Positions 1 through 11,375 of a stretch of DNA of 14,525 nt are shown one piece after another. The translations under genes were made by a program, and so were the position numbers. Source of the DNA: a virus; UHGV virus genome UHGV-1637634. The stretch is one strand, 5' to 3'. Under the pieces are notes generated by a model, which was given only the letters and a program-made list of their open reading frames with translations, did no database searches and was not told where the DNA came from. Position 1 is the first letter of the stretch. Every line of letters starts with the position of its first letter.

Positions 1-2
1 AT

Positions 3-926
3 GATTTTTGCGCCTTTATTCTGACTCACGGGCGACCGGACAAAGTTCTGACTTACCGAACGTTGCGTCGTGCTGGCTATACCGGGAAAATTTTTATCGT
101 TGTTGATGATGAAGATAAGACACGGCATCAGTACATGGCTGAATTTGGTGAACAGGTGCTGGTGTTTTCCAAAACCGATATCGCCAGTCGTTTTGACGAA
201 GCCGATAATTTCTGTGACCGCCGCTCAATTTTTTACGCCCGTAATGCCTGTTTCGACCTGGCAAAACTGGTCGGGTGTAAATACTTCATTCAGCTCGATG
301 ATGATTATCACGAGTTCCAGTTTCGGGTGGATCGCAACTATGACCAGGCCTATTTTCCGATAAGGAAACTGGATGCGATCCTTTCTGAAATGCTGGCGTA
401 CTACGAATCAATACCTGCTCTTTCCATCGCTATGTCGCAGGGCGGGGATTTTCTTGGTGACAATGGCGGCCATGCTTCGTGGGTGAAACGCAAGGCAATG
501 AACAGCTTTATCTGTTCGGTTGATCGACCGTTCTCATTCATGGGGCGCATTAACGAGGATGTGAATACGTACACGAATCTCGGTCGCTGTGGTGAATTGT
601 TTATGACGATCGGTGCTGTCCAGTTAGGGCAGAAACAGACGCAGAAAAACAGCGGCGGAATGACCGAGCTGTATCTGGATTCCGGAACCTACGTTAAAAG
701 TTTTTACTCCGTCATGTATGCGCCGTCGTGCGTAAAAATTTCACTGATGGGTGCCAGCCATAAACGCATTCACCATCAGGTCACCTGGAACAACGCTGCA
801 GTAAAAATCCTTCACGAAAAATACAGGAAGAAGACACCCTGCATATCAATGGGGGTGACAAATGATTCCGTATTCGAAAGTCGAGTCTCTGGCAGCGTGC
901 CGGATGACTGCACAACAAATCGCTGA
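3..926 (+). CDS. hypothetical protein, 5'-truncated at window edge; possible GT-A-fold glycosyltransferase
   Basis: Frame is open from position 3 to the TGA at 924-926 with no convincing start or RBS inside the window (the track's start at 63 is a TTG with no SD), so the gene begins upstream. Translation shows FILTHGRP...KIFIVVDDEDKT, then IQLDDDY (DxD-like) about 70 aa later, then GRINEDVNTYTNLGRCG. This pattern resembles nucleotide-sugar GT-A (family 2-like) transferases. Functional call is from motif pattern only. Confidence 0.45.
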   Translation, partial: DFCAFILTHGRPDKVLTYRTLRRAGYTGKIFIVVDDEDKTRHQYMAEFGEQVLVFSKTDIASRFDEADNFCDRRSIFYARNACFDLAKLVGCKYFIQLDDDYHEFQFRVDRNYDQAYFPIRKLDAILSEMLAYYESIPALSIAMSQGGDFLGDNGGHASWVKRKAMNSFICSVDRPFSFMGRINEDVNTYTNLGRCGELFMTIGAVQLGQKQTQKNSGGMTELYLDSGTYVKSFYSVMYAPSCVKISLMGASHKRIHHQVTWNNAAVKILHEKYRKKTPCISMGVTNDSVFESRVSGSVPDDCTTNR

Positions 927-1113
927 CGTTCTGGATGTTGATCTGAACCGACTGAAAGAAAATCGGGAAGCAATGACAGATTTTTATGCGGCCATCCGTA
1001 AGGGCAGAGCGAAAGGTGAAGCCGAGTTACGAGCGGCATTGTTTAAGCTTGCCAGAAAAGGGGATGCCTTTGCTCTGCGCGAACTACTCAGGGTGGATAA
1101 AAATCAGGACTAA
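862..1113 (+). CDS. small hypothetical protein, putative helix-turn-helix DNA-binding protein
   Basis: 83-codon ORF ending 4 nt before the terminase small subunit start. GGGGGT at 851-856 lies 5 nt upstream of ATG 862; an alternative ATG at 904 (MTAQQIADVL...) lacks an obvious SD. Basic/alanine-rich helical sequence (AAIRKGRAKGEAELRAALFKLARKGD). Overlaps the 3' end of the upstream gene in another frame. Function unverified. Confidence 0.4.
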   Translation: MIPYSKVESLAACRMTAQQIADVLDVDLNRLKENREAMTDFYAAIRKGRAKGEAELRAALFKLARKGDAFALRELLRVDKNQD

Positions 1114-1116
1114 CTG

Positions 1117-2211
1117 ATGAGCAGACCGGACTGGGGGGCGTTGCAGCAGGAGTATATTGCTGAATACACCCGCTCCGGTATATCTCCGGTGGCATGGTGT
1201 GAAGCAAGGGGACTGAATTACGCAACAGCCCGTCGTTACATCAAAAAAACTCCGAAAAATGCGCAGACAGAAATGCGCAAAACTGCGCAAAAAAGTGCGC
1301 AGAAAAAATCTGCGCAGACTGCACAAAAGCGGAACGAAAAATCTCAGGAAAAAAAGCCAGTATTCGATGCGGGCCTGAATGAGGGCGACGCGGAGGAATT
1401 TTCGTTCTGTCCCGATGAATTCGGCATTTCTGACCAGCAGGCTAAGTTTGCGATGCTTGTTGCTCAGGGTAAAAAGCCGACAGAGGCGTACCGACTAGCC
1501 GGTTATGAGGGGCAAGGTGCGACAGCTAACAGCAACGCCAGTCGTATGCTTAGAAATGCCAGGGTTTATCGTGCTATCAGCTACTTCCGCAATCAGTACC
1601 AGAAACGCTATACCGCAGACCTGGATTTACTGGTGAGCCAGTTGATGGCCATTGTCCAGGCCGACCCCAATCAGTTGGCACAATTTCGCCGTGTTAACTG
1701 CCGTTATTGCTGGGGCGAGAATCATCTCTACCAGTGGCGTGATATTGCAGAATTCGATAAGGCTGCGGCACAGGCCTCCAGAGATGGTAAACCCGAGCCG
1801 GAATATGGAGGCCTCGGCTTTGTTGATAACGCCATACCCAATCCGGATTGCCCGAAGTGCTGCGGTGAGGGAACGGGACAGCTTTATATGGCTGATACCA
1901 CACTGCTTGATGGGGATGCGCGGCAATTATATGCAGGGTCAAAGCTCGGAAAATACGGTGTTGAGATCCTGCTGGAGGATAAGGCTGCCGCCCGGCGTGA
2001 ATTGTTGCGTTTGTTTTCTGCTGGCGGGGCTTTATGTGCAGATAAGCGGCTACAGGAACTGGAAATTGAACGGCGCAGAATGGAAAACCAGAAGCTGCGC
2101 AAAGAGATCGAAACGGTGGAAGATAATGAACATCCCCAGCCTGTGGCGATCAATATTAATGTGGTTGATGCCAGAGTAAGGAGTGATGAAGATGATCTCT
2201 CCGACGCTTAA
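1117..2211 (+). CDS. terminase small subunit (unusually long, multi-domain)
   Basis: 364 aa, immediately upstream of and overlapping the terminase large subunit gene. Central segment ISDQQAKFAMLVAQGKKPTEAYRLAGYEG...ANSNASRMLRNARVYRAI matches the helix-turn-helix signature of phage small terminases of the SPP1 G1P type. Also has an N-terminal HTH-like segment, a K/Q/A-rich linker, a cysteine cluster (CRYC...CPKCC) and a C-terminal coiled coil with acidic tail. Confidence 0.7.
   Translation: MSRPDWGALQQEYIAEYTRSGISPVAWCEARGLNYATARRYIKKTPKNAQTEMRKTAQKSAQKKSAQTAQKRNEKSQEKKPVFDAGLNEGDAEEFSFCPDEFGISDQQAKFAMLVAQGKKPTEAYRLAGYEGQGATANSNASRMLRNARVYRAISYFRNQYQKRYTADLDLLVSQLMAIVQADPNQLAQFRRVNCRYCWGENHLYQWRDIAEFDKAAAQASRDGKPEPEYGGLGFVDNAIPNPDCPKCCGEGTGQLYMADTTLLDGDARQLYAGSKLGKYGVEILLEDKAAARRELLRLFSAGGALCADKRLQELEIERRRMENQKLRKEIETVEDNEHPQPVAININVVDARVRSDEDDLSDA
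1242..1356 (+). repeat. phased direct repeats inside the terminase small subunit gene: five TGCGCA cores alternating with A-tracts; candidate pac/terminase recognition region
   Basis: TGCGCA occurs at 1260, 1274, 1284, 1296 and 1311 (spacings 14, 10, 12, 15 bp), each followed by an A-rich run, with a TGCACA variant at 1319. Runs of four or more A recur at roughly one helical turn from about 1242 to 1356. The segment encodes the AQK/AQT-rich linker of the protein. Confidence 0.5.
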
Positions 2212-3493
2212 TGTGCCTCAGGCGCGATTTCTTTCAATGCCCCATAAATTTAAAGCCTATATTGCTGGTTTTGGCTCGGGCAAAACATGGGTTGGGTGTG
2301 GCGGCATATGCAAGGGGATTTGGGAGCATCCAGGTATAAATCAGGGATATTTTGCGCCAACGTATCCCCAAATTCGCGATATTTTTTACCCTACAGTGGA
2401 AGAAGTTGCTGCTGACTGGGGATTGAACGTAAAAATTAATGAGGGAAATAAAGAGGTTCACTTTTATTACGGACGCCAGTATCGGGGAACCACTATCTGC
2501 AGATCGATGGAGAAGCCACAAACGATCGTCGGTTTCAAAATTGGTAATGCGTTGGTGGATGAACTGGACATTTTGCCGAAGGAAAAAGCCAGAACGGCGT
2601 GGCGCAAGATAATTGCACGTATGCGTTATAAGATTGATGGACTTCGCAACGGTATTGACGTTACAACCACGCCGGAAGGATTCAAATTTGTCTACGAGCA
2701 GTTTGTTAAAGCCGTGCGTGAAAAAACAGAGCTGGCCTCACTGTATGGTCTGGTGCAGGCATCTACTTTCGATAATGAAAAGAACCTGCCAGCAGATTAC
2801 ATTCCTTCGCTTCTTGAATCATACCCTCCAGAGCTGATTAAAGCCTATCTTCGAGGACAGTTTACTAACCTGACAAGTGGTACTGTTTACCATCAGTTTG
2901 ACCGGAAACTGAATAATTGCGAAGAAGTGGAGCAGCCAGGGGAGCCGATTTATATTGGGATGGATTTTAACGTTGGAAAGATGGCGGGAATCGTCCATGT
3001 GCTGCGTTTGGGGCTTCCATGTGCGGTAACTGAAATCATCAATGCCTACGATACGCCGGATATGATCCGCATCATTAAAGAACGCTTCTGGCTGTATGAT
3101 GGGAATGATTACCGGAAAGTGAGGGAAATTTATATTTATCCAGATGCTTCCGGGGATTCCAGAAAATCAAGTAACGCAAGTACGACGGATATAGCCCAGC
3201 TTAAGCAGGCTGGTTTTAACGTTGTGGTGAACAGCTCGAACCCGCCAGTAAAAGATCGCGTTAACTCAATGAATGCAATGTTCTGCAATGCCAATGGTGA
3301 GCGTCGCTATAAAGTTAATGTGAAGCGTTGCCCGTTATATGCCGAATCTCTGGAGCAACAGGTCTGGGATGAGAAGGGGGAGCCTGATAAAAAATCTGGC
3401 AATGATCACCCGAATGATGCCGGAGGTTATTTCATCGTTAAGCAATTCCCTATTGTCAAACCGACCGGAAGAGTCACATCACTTCGGATTTAA
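2192..3493 (+). CDS. terminase large subunit
   Basis: Walker A-like motif GFGSGKT near the N-terminus; about 433 aa; follows the small subunit gene with overlap. AAGGAG at 2178-2183 is 8 nt upstream of ATG 2192; alternative in-frame starts are GTG 2183 and ATG 2186. Stop TAA at 3491-3493. Confidence 0.85.
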   Translation: MISPTLNVPQARFLSMPHKFKAYIAGFGSGKTWVGCGGICKGIWEHPGINQGYFAPTYPQIRDIFYPTVEEVAADWGLNVKINEGNKEVHFYYGRQYRGTTICRSMEKPQTIVGFKIGNALVDELDILPKEKARTAWRKIIARMRYKIDGLRNGIDVTTTPEGFKFVYEQFVKAVREKTELASLYGLVQASTFDNEKNLPADYIPSLLESYPPELIKAYLRGQFTNLTSGTVYHQFDRKLNNCEEVEQPGEPIYIGMDFNVGKMAGIVHVLRLGLPCAVTEIINAYDTPDMIRIIKERFWLYDGNDYRKVREIYIYPDASGDSRKSSNASTTDIAQLKQAGFNVVVNSSNPPVKDRVNSMNAMFCNANGERRYKVNVKRCPLYAESLEQQVWDEKGEPDKKSGNDHPNDAGGYFIVKQFPIVKPTGRVTSLRI

Positions 3494-3495
3494 TT

Positions 3496-4902
3496 ATGGC
3501 TGATATATCAACACCCAACCTCGACTATAACGATATGCTGGAGGCGTGGGATATTAACGACGCACTGATGGGCGGTACGCTTGAAATGCGCAGGCAGGGG
3601 GAAAATTATCTCCCAAAATGGCCTAACGAAGATGAAGACGCTTATAAAAAACGCCTGTCTGTGGCTACGCTACTTCCTGTGTATGAAGAAAGCATCAAGC
3701 AAAATATTGGGCGCATATTTGCAGAGCCGACAGTATTGAGTGAGGAAACGCCGGCAAAAATCAGGGAATATGCAGAAAATATCGACATGGAGGGGAGCCG
3801 ACTGGATGTGTGGGCGCAGCAATTTTTCAGCCTCGCATTTCAGTATGGTGTGGCACATGCGCTGGTGGACTATCCACGAACGGATATGAAAGAGATTCGG
3901 ACAAAAGCCGATGAAAACGCGACCGGTGGTCGTCCGTACGTTACGATGCTGAATCCACGCCAGGTTATTGGATGGAAATCGAAAGTTGAAAAAGGGAAAG
4001 TTGTTCTCACTGATTTGCGTATAAAAGAGGTCATCATTATTGATGGTGATGATTTCGGGCAGAAGAAGGTGGAGCAGATCCGCCATATTATGCCCCGTCG
4101 AGTTGAAATTTATCGACGTAGCGAAGGCACTAATGGCGAATCTGTCTGGACGCTTCATGAGTCATGGAATACCAGCCGTGATGATATTCCTCTGGTAACA
4201 CTGTACACGAAGAAAACAGGATTTATGCGTGGTACACCGCCATTGCTTAATCTTGGCTTGCTGAATATCAAGCACTGGCAAAGCCAGAGCGAGCAGGACA
4301 ATATTCTTCATGTTGCCCGCGTTCCATTGCTGGTGGCCTACGGGCTGGACAGGAATGAAGAACTGACGGTTGGTGCATCCACCGCTACGATTTTTGAGGA
4401 CAGAACAAAAAATGGCCTCGAATATGTTGAACATAGTGGCGCAGCGATAGAATCTGGCGAAACATCACTTGAGAAGCTGGAAAATCAGATGCGTCATGCC
4501 GGCGCTAAACTTCTGCGTGCTGAAAATACATCCACCAAATCTGTTGATCAGACTAATGAAGAGCGAATGCAGGAAAACTCGCCGCTTTATACAATGGCGA
4601 ACTCCCTCGAAGATGCCCTCGATAATATTCTCCAGATAATGGCGGAATGGATCGGAGAGAGTTGCGGTGGCAATGTGGATGTGCGCACTGAACTGGATGT
4701 ATCTGCCCAGGTGTTTGACTCATCCTCCGCGCTGGCTGTTCAGTCATTGCGTCAGGGCGGTGATATACGTCAGATTGATGCGGTTCGGGTGTTGCAGGCG
4801 TTGAAATTTATCGATCAGGATTCCCGTCCAGAGGAAGTGATCGATGAATTAAAAAATCAGAGTGTAATGCTGATGGAAATCAATGATGCAAACCGTGAAT
4901 GA
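3496..4902 (+). CDS. portal protein
   Basis: 468 aa ORF starting 2 nt after the terminase large subunit stop (translational coupling) and followed by a Mu F-like gene. Size and position are those of a portal gene. Assigned mainly by synteny. Confidence 0.7.
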   Translation: MADISTPNLDYNDMLEAWDINDALMGGTLEMRRQGENYLPKWPNEDEDAYKKRLSVATLLPVYEESIKQNIGRIFAEPTVLSEETPAKIREYAENIDMEGSRLDVWAQQFFSLAFQYGVAHALVDYPRTDMKEIRTKADENATGGRPYVTMLNPRQVIGWKSKVEKGKVVLTDLRIKEVIIIDGDDFGQKKVEQIRHIMPRRVEIYRRSEGTNGESVWTLHESWNTSRDDIPLVTLYTKKTGFMRGTPPLLNLGLLNIKHWQSQSEQDNILHVARVPLLVAYGLDRNEELTVGASTATIFEDRTKNGLEYVEHSGAAIESGETSLEKLENQMRHAGAKLLRAENTSTKSVDQTNEERMQENSPLYTMANSLEDALDNILQIMAEWIGESCGGNVDVRTELDVSAQVFDSSSALAVQSLRQGGDIRQIDAVRVLQALKFIDQDSRPEEVIDELKNQSVMLMEINDANRE

Positions 4903-5998
4903 ACGGCTGCGTGATGAATCAATTGCTCATGCAGTCTGGATATCCCGCTATAGCACTGGCGTGGCTGCCAGAATGGTGAAAATACTGAATGACAGCGATG
5001 CGGAACTTACTGCTCGCCTGCTGATAGCACTGGACAGCCTCGATCCAGGTAGTTTTACCGTTAAGCGCCTGGAGTCACTTCTGGCGAGCGTCAGAGAGGT
5101 TAACCGCACTGCTATTAACAGCATGTTTACCAGTCTCTCCGGAGAGCTGAACGAGCTGGCAATTTATGAGGCTGGTTATCAGTTAAGTCTGTTTGATTCT
5201 ATGCTACCTGATTTTGTTGCTGATGTTCACCCTCTGGTTGGTATCTCTCCTGATGCACTTTATGCCGCTGCAATGGCGCGACCATTCCAGGGACGACTGC
5301 TCAGTGAGTGGGCCTCAGATCTTGAGGCGGATCGGCTCAGACGCATAACAAATACAGTGCGTCAGGGTTTTTTGCTGGGGGATACCAATGAGCAGATCGC
5401 AAGAAAAATTCGGGGACATGTCAGTAAGGGATTTCAGGATGGTGCATTGCAGATGAGCCGGGCTAATGCGGCCAGCATTGCAAAAACAGCGGTTGGACAT
5501 CTTGCTGCTACTGCCCGTGAGAGTTTTGCCAGCGCGAATAATGATTTGATTAAGGGTAAGCAATGGTTATCAACGCTTGATAATCGTACTACGCCACAAT
5601 GTCGAATCAGGGATCGCCTCAAATATACGCTGAATAATAAACCTGTAGGTCACAGCGTGCCTTATTTGCAGGGGCCGGGAAAAATTCATTTCTGCTGCCG
5701 CTCAACGGAAACGTTCATTCTGAAATCAGCGAAGGAACTGGGTATTGATGTTCGCGATATTTCCCCGGCTGAGCGGGCCAGCATGGATGGCGTGGTGGCC
5801 GGAGATACAACCTACAGGGAATGGTTTTTGCGTCAGCCTTACACCAGACAAAAACAGATTGTGGGGGAAACCCGAGCAAAGCTGATTCGGGATGGTGGTA
5901 TGTCGCCAGATGAATTTTACACCGATAAAGGCGAATGGCTGACGCTGAAGCAGCTCCGTGAGCGTGATGCACAGGTATTCAGAAAAGCAGGGATTTAA
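4883..5998 (+). CDS. head morphogenesis / minor head protein (phage Mu F-like, SPP1 gp7-like)
   Basis: 371 aa; overlaps the portal gene 3' end by 20 nt. C-terminal region contains WLSTLDNRTTPQCRIRDRLKY...KPVGHSVPYLQGPGKIHFCCRST, matching the conserved Mu F-family core (W..DsRtRp.H...G ... CRC-like motif). Confidence 0.75.
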   Translation: MMQTVNERLRDESIAHAVWISRYSTGVAARMVKILNDSDAELTARLLIALDSLDPGSFTVKRLESLLASVREVNRTAINSMFTSLSGELNELAIYEAGYQLSLFDSMLPDFVADVHPLVGISPDALYAAAMARPFQGRLLSEWASDLEADRLRRITNTVRQGFLLGDTNEQIARKIRGHVSKGFQDGALQMSRANAASIAKTAVGHLAATARESFASANNDLIKGKQWLSTLDNRTTPQCRIRDRLKYTLNNKPVGHSVPYLQGPGKIHFCCRSTETFILKSAKELGIDVRDISPAERASMDGVVAGDTTYREWFLRQPYTRQKQIVGETRAKLIRDGGMSPDEFYTDKGEWLTLKQLRERDAQVFRKAGI

Positions 5999-9487: not shown

Positions 9488-9876
9488 AGTTTACTGAAAT
9501 CAGAAATACGGTTATTTCCAGAATGACGGCACAGACGATTATTGATGGAAAAGACGTATTGTATCCGAACGGGCCAACGTTCGATCCTTCCGGTAAGTTA
9601 ATCTGGGCGCGGTTAAGTAATATTCCCGGGCAGGCTGGAGTTAATGAAATTGGCGCGGGGCCGGTTGTTTATCGCACGGGGATAATCATTATTCAGTTAT
9701 TTGTCCCCGCAGGTTCTGGTTCAAAACTCATTACTGAGACAGCCGATAAATTGCGGGAACTGTTTGAGTTTCAGGATGACGATCGTCTCAGTTACCAGGC
9801 TGTTTCCTCAATAGCCGTCGGCGAAAAGAATGGCTGGTTCCAGCTTAATCTTCAAATTCCATATCGCGCGCTCTAG
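9484..9876 (+). CDS. putative tail terminator protein
   Basis: 130 aa; last small gene before the major tail protein gene. Assigned by synteny. Confidence 0.4.
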   Translation: MKFTEIRNTVISRMTAQTIIDGKDVLYPNGPTFDPSGKLIWARLSNIPGQAGVNEIGAGPVVYRTGIIIIQLFVPAGSGSKLITETADKLRELFEFQDDDRLSYQAVSSIAVGEKNGWFQLNLQIPYRAL

Positions 9877-9902
9877 CGCAATTAATGACATAGGAGGCTC
9901 CT

Positions 9903-10865
9903 GTGAGTTCAGGTGCAAAGGTTATCTCGGCATTTATCCGGGAGACAGTTGCAGGCACTACGCCAGCAAGTGGTGACTGGAGTTTATTAAAACGCACAAG
10001 CTGGGGAGTAAAACCCACCCAGAATAAAGGCGAAAATAATGAGATTGGTGGCTCCCGGATGGCTCAGGGGGCGACGCCTGGCACTGTGGATGTCGGCGGT
10101 GATGTTGGTACCAAATTTCGCTGGGGTCAACATGATGATTTTCTTGCATCCTGTTTCGGCGCGGAATGGTCAGGCGATTCTCTGACAATGGGGAATGAGC
10201 GAATAACATTTTCTCTGGCGACCTATGCGTCCGATGTCGGAATTGCCTCTGTCGTCAGAGGAGCGCAGGTTGGCTCATGGAAAATGCAGATCCCTAACGA
10301 CGGCGATATTACAGCGACCGTAACCTTTGCCGGGCTGGGCTGGGAATCAAAGGCCGATGATACGAATTTTATCAAAGGCGAACCTGTGGATAGTGCAGGA
10401 AAGTTACGCTATTCGTTTAAGGAGGTTTCAGCAGTAAGCCTGAATGGTGTTGCCGGAGGTAACGGTTTTTGTATCGACAGTTTTGATATTCAGTTCGATA
10501 ACAAACTCCAGACACAGCATTGTATCGGGACTGGCTCGCCTTATGCAGGAGCAAATATTCCGACTACTTTTACACCGTCCGGTACGGTGACGCTTTCATG
10601 GTCTAAAGCCGCGTGGGAAATCTGGAGTAAAACACTGACTGGAGAAACAGTTCCGTTCAGCTTCACGCTTTCGAATGGAGAGGGGGCATACACTTTCAGT
10701 TTCCCGAAGGTTCAGGTGTCAGGTGAATGGCCTGATGGGGGTAATACTGACATTATCCAGGTTCAATTGAGCATTACCGCAGCAGATGAAGCACCTACGA
10801 TAACCAGAAAAAAATGCTCCCCGACTGCCGTGATCGCAAAAGCCAGTGCTGATGCGATTAGTTGA
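9903..10865 (+). CDS. major tail (tube) protein
   Basis: GTG start at 9903 preceded by a strong SD, AGGAGG at about 9891-9896. 320 aa, immediately upstream of the G/GT chaperone pair. Position and size fit a siphovirus major tail protein. Confidence 0.65.
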   Translation: MSSGAKVISAFIRETVAGTTPASGDWSLLKRTSWGVKPTQNKGENNEIGGSRMAQGATPGTVDVGGDVGTKFRWGQHDDFLASCFGAEWSGDSLTMGNERITFSLATYASDVGIASVVRGAQVGSWKMQIPNDGDITATVTFAGLGWESKADDTNFIKGEPVDSAGKLRYSFKEVSAVSLNGVAGGNGFCIDSFDIQFDNKLQTQHCIGTGSPYAGANIPTTFTPSGTVTLSWSKAAWEIWSKTLTGETVPFSFTLSNGEGAYTFSFPKVQVSGEWPDGGNTDIIQVQLSITAADEAPTITRKKCSPTAVIAKASADAIS

Positions 10866-10877
10866 TTTTCCGTTATT

Positions 10878-10904
10878 CCCCCTGTGGTACTGCACTACAG
10901 GGGG
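10878..10904 (+). promoter_or_regulatory. perfect 8-bp hairpin overlapping the chaperone gene ribosome-binding site
   Basis: CCCCCTGT (10878-10885), 11-nt loop, ACAGGGGG (10897-10904). No U-tract follows. The 3' arm contains the GGGGG SD-like run about 9 nt upstream of the chaperone ATG at 10914. Confidence 0.4.
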
Positions 10905-10913
10905 ACGCATTGA

Positions 10914-11375
10914 ATGAGGTTATGGATGTTTATTCTTAATCAGAAAATTATCATCGGTGGAGAACGCTGGTTTACGCCAATGAAGGACTTAAAACCTGTA
11001 GACGGGTTAAAACTGTTGGTGGCAAGCAGCGATAACGATCAGTATCGCTCCCGTAATGCATTAATCCGTCGTCACATTGAGAAAATGGATGCCAGTTTGC
11101 ACGTCGGAACGAAGGAGTTTGATATTTCAAAAGTTTCCGAGGTAGATTCTGTTGATGATTTACTCATTGATAATGCTGCTCGTTATCTGCTGAAAGACTG
11201 GAAAGGGGTTGGTGAACTGGTTAATGGTGCTGAGGTTGCACTGGAATATACGCCAGAACGAGGGATCGCGCTGCTTAAGCAGAATCCAGAGTTGTACTGG
11301 CAGATCCTTGCAGAAGCAGCCAGCATCGCCCAGGGTAAAGAGCAGCAGAAGCAGGATACGATAAAAAAGCCATAG
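10914..11375 (+). CDS. tail assembly chaperone (lambda gpG-like)
   Basis: 153 aa ORF between the major tail and tape measure genes. Ends ...DTIKKP with the A_AAA_AAG slippery heptamer one codon before its TAG stop. Confidence 0.65.
   Translation: MRLWMFILNQKIIIGGERWFTPMKDLKPVDGLKLLVASSDNDQYRSRNALIRRHIEKMDASLHVGTKEFDISKVSEVDSVDDLLIDNAARYLLKDWKGVGELVNGAEVALEYTPERGIALLKQNPELYWQILAEAASIAQGKEQQKQDTIKKP

Follow-up and report, generated by a model that had tools for sequence, protein, structure and literature searches.

A gene that resembles a nucleotide-sugar transferase and lies directly ahead of phage packaging genes raises the question of what it glycosylates. We addressed this question for a virus-derived stretch of 14,525 nucleotides (hereafter the window), at the 5' end of which such a gene, here called GT, had been noticed. 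The original prediction placed a GT-A enzyme in a slot typical of morons and left its role open between lysogenic conversion and glycosylation of DNA or of virions. In the searchable literature, neither a functional result on GT and its upstream partner (the ParB-like/GT module described below) or on ynaK nor an experiment on the module was found.

The GT gene (1..926, + strand) is read in frame 3, in which no stop codon interrupts the window from its first base until the TGA at 924-926; the remaining two + frames across it are rich in stop codons. Prophage and phage records match positions 1-1200 of the window at 99.6-100% identity, and near-identical records show that the true start (ATG CGT GAT...) precedes the window by 7 nt. 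The complete gene, retrieved from ON032529, encodes 310 aa, of which the window holds 307 residues (codons 4-310 plus the stop). The gene is indeed cut by the window edge, as had been proposed, but because just 3 codons are missing it is far less truncated than was assumed. GT residue numbers given here follow the window, with the first 3 codons outside it. The dN/dS against relatives is about 0.06, indicating purifying selection, and this value rules out a pseudogene or a chance ORF. The translation, the full gene, the Pfam and PHROG matches, the structural model and the dN/dS agree on the feature. GT is a genuine, strongly conserved phage gene, with a non-conserved tail at residues about 280-307.

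All four motifs from which a GT-A enzyme had been predicted, including the DxD, were found in place on the + strand, and their key residues do not vary among 22 homologues with 60-83% identity. FILTHGRP (15..38) corresponds to beta-strand 1 and the HGRP loop (G10 and R11 invariant), IVVDDEDKT (96..122) to beta-strand 2 followed by an acidic loop (D35 and D38 invariant), and IQLDDDY (288..308) to a beta-strand ending in the DxD motif (D99, D100, D101 and Y102 invariant). In NEDVNTY, the N-E-D triplet (552..560; N184-E185-D186) is invariant and supplies the 'ED' of the signature of GT-A DNA glycosyltransferases. Based on the alignment and the model, the complete R...DDD...ED signature is present as R11, D99-D101 and E185-D186. 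This signature has been published for phage GT-A enzymes glycosylating 5hmC in DNA and for the base-J glucosyltransferase (JGT).

A family, which the original prediction had not been able to name, was assigned. GT matched the Pfam family TAGT (PF20691, "TET-associated glycosyltransferase") at 122.5 bits against a cut-off of 27.5, over profile positions 4-205 of 205, and PHROG 842 with an E value of 2.6e-102. PGAP (NCBI) labels the E. coli protein 'GREB1-related protein', and no NCBIfam model covers GT. The TAGT family was reportedly defined by Iyer et al. in 2013 (Nucleic Acids Res.). In the AF2 model of GT, the N-terminal 150 residues have pLDDT above 90, as does the beta-strand at residues 94-99 directly before DDD; the C-terminal, acceptor-binding half is of low confidence. 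Employing Foldseek, we found viral TAGT proteins as the top matches in BFVD (TM 0.68-0.74), and the PDB structures matched were GT-A transferases and related nucleotidyltransferases, at a level of generic similarity (TM 0.3-0.44); a PDB sequence search with GT gave no match. As judged from motifs, profiles and the model, GT is a DxD/metal-type GT-A nucleotide-sugar transferase of the TAGT family.

Phage TAGT DNA glycosyltransferases share with GT the PF20691 domain, the GT-A fold and the R...DDD...ED signature, and they are likewise viral and expressed with DNA-handling genes. In T6-like phages, a TAGT is held responsible for the second glucose on DNA, and GT-A enzymes of metaviromic methyltransferase/TET clusters glycosylate 5hmC. 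Between GT and T4-like members, sequence similarity is just 22-24%, and the T2/T6 enzyme was not reached by tblastn from either the window protein or the Aeromonas phage 65 homologue. The close relatives of GT, like those of phage TAGTs, occur in tandem or with glycan-tailoring enzymes: their fusion partners are a second TAGT, SAM-methyltransferases, a sulfotransferase or a P-loop NTPase (possibly a kinase; AAA-domain matches were weak). These fusions fit the stepwise glycan building and tailoring described for DNA hypermodification. DNA glycosylation, one of the roles originally suggested, is a serious candidate in view of the family and the signature.

The gene upstream of GT encodes a ParB/Srx-like protein of 263 aa, of which the last stop-codon base (1..1, + strand) lies in the window and the rest outside. 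Its stop overlaps the start of GT by 8 nt (ATGCGTGA), and a Shine-Dalgarno sequence (GAGGAGGAGG) is located directly 5' of the GT ATG. The partner adjoins GT in all 86 close loci and in 88 of 92 diverse viral loci. GT and a near-obligate ParB/Srx-like partner form a two-gene module in which GT comes second; a flippase or base-modification enzymes had been suggested as upstream partners to look for, and this protein was found instead.

Downstream, the tail of GT overlaps by 65 nt the start of an 83-aa ORF (862..1113, + strand), which the records annotate from 904. The ATG at 862 is preceded by GGGGG; the product has no Pfam family and, along its full 83 aa, is 64% identical to the +1 ORF of L060. 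The same gene chain continues with the terminase small subunit (1117..2211, + strand; Pfam Terminase_2), confirming the position of GT directly upstream of the packaging genes, and with the large subunit (2183..3493, + strand; Pfam Terminase_6N/6C). The host element is a full-length Rac-type prophage, in which the integrase lies about 22 kb from GT. GC content of GT is 48%, matching the late genes, versus 37.8% for upstream trkG, which carries its own terminator-like hairpin. trkG is the true moron in the slot between the lysis genes and the terminase. No strong promoter-like match was found in the interval from trkG to the ParB-like gene; together with the gene overlaps and the late-gene GC, this appears to fit late co-expression of the module with the terminase chain.

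The arrangement is not confined to this prophage. The ParB-like/GT pair also occurs in Lactobacillus phages c5 and jlb1, in haloarchaeal virus HHTV-2 and in a Porphyromonas phage, so that the module spans viruses of Proteobacteria, Firmicutes, Bacteroidota and haloarchaea, mostly just upstream of terminases. It precedes terminases of four unrelated families and accompanies four portal families. In phage c5 (complete, 31.8 kb, no integrase annotated), it lies between cos and the terminase gene.

These data bear on the suggestion that GT is a lysogenic-conversion moron modifying O-antigen or another surface polysaccharide of the lysogen. The slot does hold a moron, and GT-A enzymes serve in seroconversion: Gtr-type seroconverting enzymes are, like GT, prophage-encoded with a GT-A catalytic domain. 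Gtr-type enzymes are membrane-associated, their genes sit beside the attachment site and are active in the lysogen, and they act together with a flippase and a membrane transferase that is serotype-specific. GT, however, contains no hydrophobic segment (maximum Kyte-Doolittle 19-residue mean 1.08) and is predicted to be a soluble enzyme; its neighbours are the ParB-like gene and the terminase chain, both of which it overlaps, and no flippase or Gtr-type neighbour was found in the Rac-type prophage. Its base composition differs from that of trkG, the module is present in c5 and in an archaeal virus, and GT matched no PADLOC defence model. Composition, overlaps, synteny across phyla, the lack of a membrane segment and the occurrence in phage c5, with no integrase annotated, largely refute the moron reading, which we regard as extremely improbable.

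Glycosylation of virion proteins, also raised by the original prediction, would alter the stability or surface of the particle through sugars on capsid or tail. Some phage glycosyltransferases, for example of mycobacteriophages, modify capsids, and GT does lie within the late structural/packaging chain. However, the module travels with four terminase and four portal families and hence with unrelated head proteins, a distribution that does not sit easily with a fixed protein acceptor. An obligate ParB-type partner would also have no obvious role in such a reaction. The location of the gene is in keeping with the proposal, the partner is a poor match for it, and we rate it as highly improbable.

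The N-domain of the partner is in line with action on DNA. In the partner, a disordered linker joins a predicted nucleotide-binding domain to a C-terminal domain. The closest phage relatives of its N-domain are the N-termini of DNA methyltransferases (45-54% identity), and it matched PADLOC MTase_II (E 2.5e-38) solely through the ParB-like N-terminus of that type II methyltransferase model. This kinship suggests that the same targeting domain has been reused with another DNA-modifying enzyme. In the prophage ParB-domain/DNA methyltransferase fusions, which are enriched in phages and prophages, catalysis resides on the same chain; in contrast, the partner lacks a methyltransferase domain and has its own C-terminal domain, and catalysis (predicted glycosyl transfer) is assigned to a separate polypeptide. 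In the nucleotide-binding boxes of the ParB-CTPase fold, where box II has a conserved arginine and box III a conserved asparagine, GHGR takes the place of GERR in the partner, with the first arginine and the glutamate lost and G57, R60 and N93 invariant.

A second system resembles the module in layout. The ParB-dependent thymine dioxygenases (5mYOX; PNAS 2026, PMC13229309) likewise combine a DNA-modifying enzyme with an adjacent ParB-like protein, and that ParB is built along the same lines as the partner, with a disordered linker between a nucleotide-binding and a C-terminal domain and with no recognisable DNA-binding domain. 5mYOX-ParB loci are often near the terminase (PMC13229309). The enzyme there, however, is a dioxygenase whereas that of the module is a glycosyltransferase, and the glycosyltransferase-linked dioxygenases are the ParB-independent ones (PMC13229309). 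That ParB guides DNA-modification enzymes during packaging is an idea cited by the ParB/5mYOX authors (PMC13229309) and by Burke et al.

Based on these comparisons, we infer that the pair may be a late-expressed, ParB-assisted module glycosylating phage DNA before or during packaging, a reading to which we give an even chance. GT would be the catalytic half and the ParB/Srx-like protein the other half. GT would take sugar from a nucleotide-sugar donor and attach it to the phage genome once this has been replicated, either while the DNA is being packaged or shortly before; the partner might load or activate GT so that it acts on double-stranded DNA; and the modified DNA could be protected from host nucleases or defence systems. 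Several observations speak against DNA as the acceptor: in the partner, an acidic protein (pI 4.5), no DNA-binding (HTH) domain can be recognised, its ParB domain is dispensable in certain Vibrio phages (see below), no acceptor-making enzyme accompanies the module, and protein glycosylation has been reported for GREB1, a TAGT-domain protein of eukaryotes.

The missing acceptor-making enzyme sets the module apart from the known systems. Known phage TAGTs act on 5hmC or on 5hmC-attached glucose, the base being supplied by the phage, and JGT of kinetoplastids, which with GREB1 belongs to the same wider group of GT-A enzymes and carries the same published catalytic signature, needs 5hmU made by JBP; neither JGT nor GREB1 has a ParB partner. 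The annotation of the Rac-type prophage, taken over its whole length, lists no TET/JBP dioxygenase, dCMP/dUMP hydroxymethylase or C5-methyltransferase, and neither does that of the complete genome of phage c5. Of the top 40 recurrent neighbour clusters, 38 are not part of the module, and in the 30 of these that were tested Pfam revealed no acceptor-making enzyme either; ThyX was found near the module in only 6 of 152 loci. The usual acceptor, 5hmC or 5hmU, is missing because there is no TET/JBP dioxygenase or pyrimidine hydroxymethylase to make it; the acceptor of GT cannot be phage-made 5hmC or 5hmU.

One way to accommodate DNA as the acceptor would be self-sufficient glycosylation by the ParB-like/TAGT pair without prior hydroxymethylation, the sugar being placed on a canonical base or on the backbone during packaging. 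We know of no precedent for GT-A glycosylation of a canonical DNA base, and to our knowledge phage DNA glycosylation has so far been found only on hydroxymethylated pyrimidines or 5-hydroxycytosine. This specific form of the proposal is put forward tentatively, as a rather unlikely one.

That no DNA acceptor can be named would also suit an enzyme acting on a small molecule or nucleotide, such as a host metabolite or an immune signalling nucleotide, with the ParB/Srx-fold partner as an NTP-dependent kinase or another enzyme of the same pathway. The fusion of some GT relatives to a P-loop NTPase is consistent with such a pathway. On the other hand, the nearest kin of the partner N-domain are domains of DNA methyltransferases, the module keeps its position ahead of the terminase rather than among early/anti-defence genes, and the ParB domain can be missing while the C-terminal domain stays. 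We consider a small-molecule substrate improbable.

A different acceptor is suggested by the portion that every partner retains. In Vibrio phages of 191-196 kb, the partner is just 139 aa long and comprises a peptide motif and the C-terminal domain; since the ParB domain is absent there, the ParB part is not indispensable. The peptide motif, YTxKIxxPxYEP, is conserved within a disordered segment of low or rising model confidence; in 20 diverse partners Y157 is invariant and Y148, P155, P159 and P164 are nearly so. The C-terminal domain has neither a Pfam family nor a structural relative. In the phage collection it was found in 28 records, only in phage groups that also carry GT (the listed accessions coincide), versus 523 records matched by the N-domain. 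GT might therefore glycosylate a protein, most plausibly its own partner on this tyrosine-bearing peptide, so that the module would encode an enzyme together with its substrate, and the resulting glycoprotein would act in packaging or host takeover. The PDB fold matches of GT include the peptide/protein glycosyltransferases SunS, ThuS and ColGalT1 and the self-glucosylating glycogenin, and the oestrogen receptor is reported to be glycosylated by GREB1, a large multidomain protein of eukaryotes.

However, a conserved peptide beside an enzyme is explained equally well as a docking or activation motif, and the fold matches reflect only the generic GT-A similarity noted above. The characterised phage relatives of GT act on DNA, N-domains like that of the partner are found fused to DNA methyltransferases, and tailoring fusions and tandem GTs are equally typical of DNA glycan pathways. 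Among 150 family representatives, no ParB-GT fusion protein was found; N-terminal extensions were P-loop NTPases, methyltransferases or a second GT. Glycosylation of a protein, most plausibly the partner, is the chief rival reading but, in our estimate, rather unlikely, and glycosylation of phage DNA remains the reading we prefer.

The module, which is very widespread, keeps a DNA-type glycosyltransferase and a ParB-type helper yet lacks an acceptor-making enzyme. The outcome would be either new acceptor chemistry on DNA or proof of protein glycosylation by TAGTs in phages, and either would be relevant to the arms race between phages and hosts, to what the ParB fold does besides segregation and to DNA-labelling tools. 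If DNA is glycosylated without prior hydroxymethylation, phage DNA modification would gain a new chemical class, carried by roughly one in five of the E. coli strains sequenced and occurring also in viruses of bacteria and archaea. Because the system sits in ordinary E. coli prophages, it is testable by standard genetics and mass spectrometry. The GT gene was found in 996 of 5426 complete E. coli genomes (18%), and its homologues form at least 8000 clusters when grouped at 90% identity and 1302 when grouped at 50%.

The glycosyltransferase gene (GT) lies at nucleotides 1-926 of the window on the + strand, where frame 3 is open from the first base to a TGA at 924-926 and translation of the two other + frames gives many stops. 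Near-identical records place the start of GT 7 nt upstream of the window (ATG CGT GAT) and give a product of 310 residues. The original prediction that the gene is cut by the window edge was right as to the truncation, but the matching records with the full gene limit the loss to only three codons. The same DNA, at 95-100% identity, was found in ten phage records and in 996 of 5426 complete E. coli genomes. All four predicted motifs, FILTHGRP (nt 15-38), IVVDDEDKT (nt 96-122), IQLDDDY (nt 288-308) and NED (nt 552-560), were present on the + strand in the translation and in the predicted order, and their key residues (G10, R11, D35, D38, D99-D101, Y102 and N184-E185-D186 in window numbering) were invariant when aligned with 21 homologues (60-83% identity). 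The dN/dS of GT against its relatives was ~0.06. Judged by these comparisons, GT is a genuine gene under strong purifying selection.

Although no family had been proposed for its product, one can be named: Pfam PF20691 (TET-associated glycosyltransferase, TAGT) matched GT over the whole profile with 122.5 bits (cut-off, 27.5 bits). PHROG 842 ('beta-glucosyl-HMC-alpha-glucosyltransferase') matched with E 2.6e-102, and the current NCBI PGAP name is 'GREB1-related protein'; there was no match in NCBIfam, nor in PDB by sequence search. The AlphaFold2 model of GT showed a mean pLDDT of 68, with residues 1-150 above 90 and a poor C-terminal half. Its best matches among viral predicted structures were TAGT-domain proteins (E 1e-22, TM 0.68-0.74), and among solved structures only GT-A glycosyltransferases and related nucleotidyltransferases were matched (E 5e-5 to 1e-3). 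These profile and structure matches confirmed the predicted GT-A fold, and in the model the DDD triplet comes after a confident beta-strand, as expected of a DxD motif. R...DDD...ED, ordered and invariant in GT, is the published signature shared by phage GT-A enzymes acting on 5hmC in DNA and the trypanosome base-J glucosyltransferase. The protein is mildly basic, without any hydrophobic segment. Its family is a large one, with 1302 clusters at 50% identity (counted with E up to 1e-3). By itself, GT is an ordinary gene that has been annotated already.

GT resides in a full-length Rac-type prophage with the integrase beside ttcA, followed by ralR, recT, recE, kilR, racR, ydaS, ydaT, trkG and ydaY. 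Around GT, the order is Q, two tRNAs, lysis genes, trkG, a ParB/Srx-like gene (hereafter the partner), GT, an 83-aa ORF, TerS, TerL, portal, head and tail genes. GT is thus positioned just ahead of the packaging genes, as predicted, with only the 83-aa ORF between it and TerS. The stop of the partner gene and the start of GT overlap by 8 nt, preceded by the ribosome-binding site GAGGAGGAGG; at its other end, GT runs into the 83-aa ORF, 3 nt lie between that ORF and TerS, and TerS overlaps TerL. Therefore, GT belongs to the packaging gene chain and is not an insert. The GC content of trkG is 37.8%, whereas those of the partner gene, GT and the terminase genes are 48-50%, and a 10-bp hairpin with a T-run follows trkG (9597-11182 of the retrieved locus L002, upstream of the window, between the lysis genes and the partner gene). 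This slot does hold a moron, namely trkG, and the view of GT as a moron finds no support. Nor does its proposed role in surface polysaccharide or lysogenic conversion, which we regard as very improbable; the upstream neighbours are the partner gene and then trkG, where a flippase or base-modification enzyme had been sought.

The 83-aa ORF (862-1113, +), with its ATG at 862 behind GGGGG, belongs to no Pfam family. Its start is most likely at 862, as judged from alignment, rather than at 904 (69 aa) as in GenBank/RefSeq: all 83 residues align with the +1 ORF of a relative at 64% identity. The last 28 residues of GT in E. coli are not conserved, and the ORF overlaps this tail; in relatives, GT stops ahead of the ORF.

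A partner homologue adjoins GT in all 86 loci first collected (GT identity 57-100%). Another 100 viral loci, with GT identities as low as ~40%, show it in 88; in 8 of the other 12 GT lies at a contig end, and in 2 it is a fragment. Neighbour clustering of 152 diverse loci showed 112 with the partner at position -1, upstream of TerL genes of four unrelated families (Terminase_6N, Terminase_3, GpA and TerL_ATPase) and portal genes of four families. In Lactobacillus phage c5, the annotated pair is ORF1 and ORF2, which come immediately behind cos and ahead of the terminase; the pair is annotated also in Lactobacillus phage jlb1, haloarchaeal virus HHTV-2 and a Porphyromonas phage with a GT of only 27% identity.

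The partner consists of a ParB N-domain, an acidic disordered linker, and a conserved peptide (YTxKIxxPxYEPxGxKP, with Y157 invariant) joined to a helical domain of ~90 residues (RH..F..IADYYAH...Q..ME.SALVIID..AIENG) for which neither a Pfam family nor a structural relative was found. The nearest phage relatives of the N-domain are N-termini of DNA methyltransferases (45-54% identity), a closer match than the GT-linked partner of jlb1, and the PADLOC type II methyltransferase model matches it with E 2.5e-38. By sequence, the ParB domain is a module common to other DNA-modifying enzymes. The peptide and helical domain occurred in 28 phage-collection records, only in phage groups also carrying GT, and in Vibrio phages of 191-196 kb (pv27, L090 4459-4878; also phiKT1024, Va1 and SRILMA) they alone make up a partner of 139 aa, 52% identical to that of E. 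coli. The peptide and C-terminal domain are therefore the GT-specific element of the partner.

The best-supported reading, to which we give an even chance, is a late-expressed two-component module that adds sugar to the phage genome, either before packaging or in the course of it. GT would be the catalyst, and the partner would load or activate it via its C-terminal domain and peptide; the ParB domain may supply a nucleotide- or DNA-linked function common to phage methyltransferases, and the phage would gain protection from host nucleases. The strongest rival, which is possible but rather unlikely, is that GT glycosylates its own partner at the tyrosine-containing peptide: the peptide is kept in the ParB-less Vibrio partner, and GREB1, which has a TAGT domain, is reported to act on protein.

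The main weakness of the DNA-glycosylation reading is the missing acceptor. Characterized TAGT enzymes depend on a hydroxymethyl-pyrimidine or on a sugar that such a base already bears; GT belongs to this known family, but its arrangement lacks one defining feature of the characterized systems, a hydroxymethyl-pyrimidine source. Neither the annotation of the whole Rac-type prophage nor that of the complete phage c5 genome (31.8 kb) lists a TET/JBP dioxygenase, hydroxymethylase or C5-methyltransferase, and Pfam showed no acceptor-making enzyme among 30 recurrent neighbour clusters, the larger of the 38 non-module clusters in the top 40. A small-molecule target for GT appears improbable, and glycosylation of the virion slightly more so. 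A DNA-type glycosyltransferase that is carried by one E. coli genome in five and lacks its usual acceptor poses a sharp and cheaply testable question.

Recurrent accessory genes in the 152 loci encode a radical-SAM enzyme at +1 (15 loci, e.g. L186 976-1917), a SAM-methyltransferase (13, e.g. L196 1731-2558) and, several genes upstream, ThyX (6, e.g. L125 1494-2111). GT relatives at ~50% identity are fused to a second divergent TAGT, a SAM-methyltransferase, Sulfotransfer_2 or an N-terminal P-loop NTPase (P0294, P0295, P0312, P0314, P0322, P0325, P0329, P0331, P0355 and P0363); the NTPase (~184 aa), with a Walker A motif (GxxxxGKS/T) and only weak AAA-domain matches, is a possible kinase. In a Sphingomicrobium-related soil-metagenome contig (L003 1357-3938; near-identical to a contig of an NCBI metagenome assembly with a protein labelled Sphingomicrobium sp.), ParB-like, TAGT and TAGT genes lie in a row with an HNH endonuclease gene ahead. 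Accessory genes, fusions and tandem TAGTs point to an extended and tailored glycan, resembling reported DNA glycans, and do not identify the acceptor.

In T6-like phages, a TAGT is thought to put the second glucose on their DNA, and metaviromic GT-A enzymes glycosylate 5hmC; in the metaviromic study, the 65% of GT contigs without an adjacent base-modification enzyme were set aside. One subclass of phage thymine dioxygenases is activated on dsDNA by ParB-like proteins that have no DNA-binding domain, and genes for ParB, glycosyltransferase and terminase are often found together with these dioxygenases (PMC13229309). A survey of the ParB-CTPase fold reported ParB-methyltransferase fusions enriched in prophages and mentioned neither glycosyltransferases nor terminase. 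The notion of ParB guiding DNA-modifying enzymes during packaging is credited to Iyer et al. 2013, where the ParB-like/TAGT arrangement may already be depicted. We found no experimental literature on the two-gene module.

Other features were seen in the packaging and head genes. TerS carries a lysine/glutamine-rich low-complexity stretch (KNAQTEMRKTAQKSAQKKSAQTAQKRNEKSQEKK; 1240-1350, +) N-terminal of its Terminase_2 domain, encoded by repeated GCGCAGA/AAAA units. The product of 4883-5998 (+) is a Mu-F-like head protein with Pfam Phage_Mu_F at residues 154-275 only and ~95 C-terminal residues without a Pfam match; one phage record calls it 'NAD+--asparagine ADP-ribosyltransferase'. In strain 14EC029, with a GT 100% identical to that of the window, an IS4 element splits the TerL gene (L203 22192-24931), unlike the intact TerL gene of the window (2183-3493). 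Truncations, and in-frame fusions to fragments of Lom, tail-fibre, NlpC/P60 or terminase genes, affect many E. coli copies of the partner gene and GT and indicate frequent deletions in this prophage region; the short ynaK of the K-12 Rac prophage is presumably such a remnant of the partner gene.
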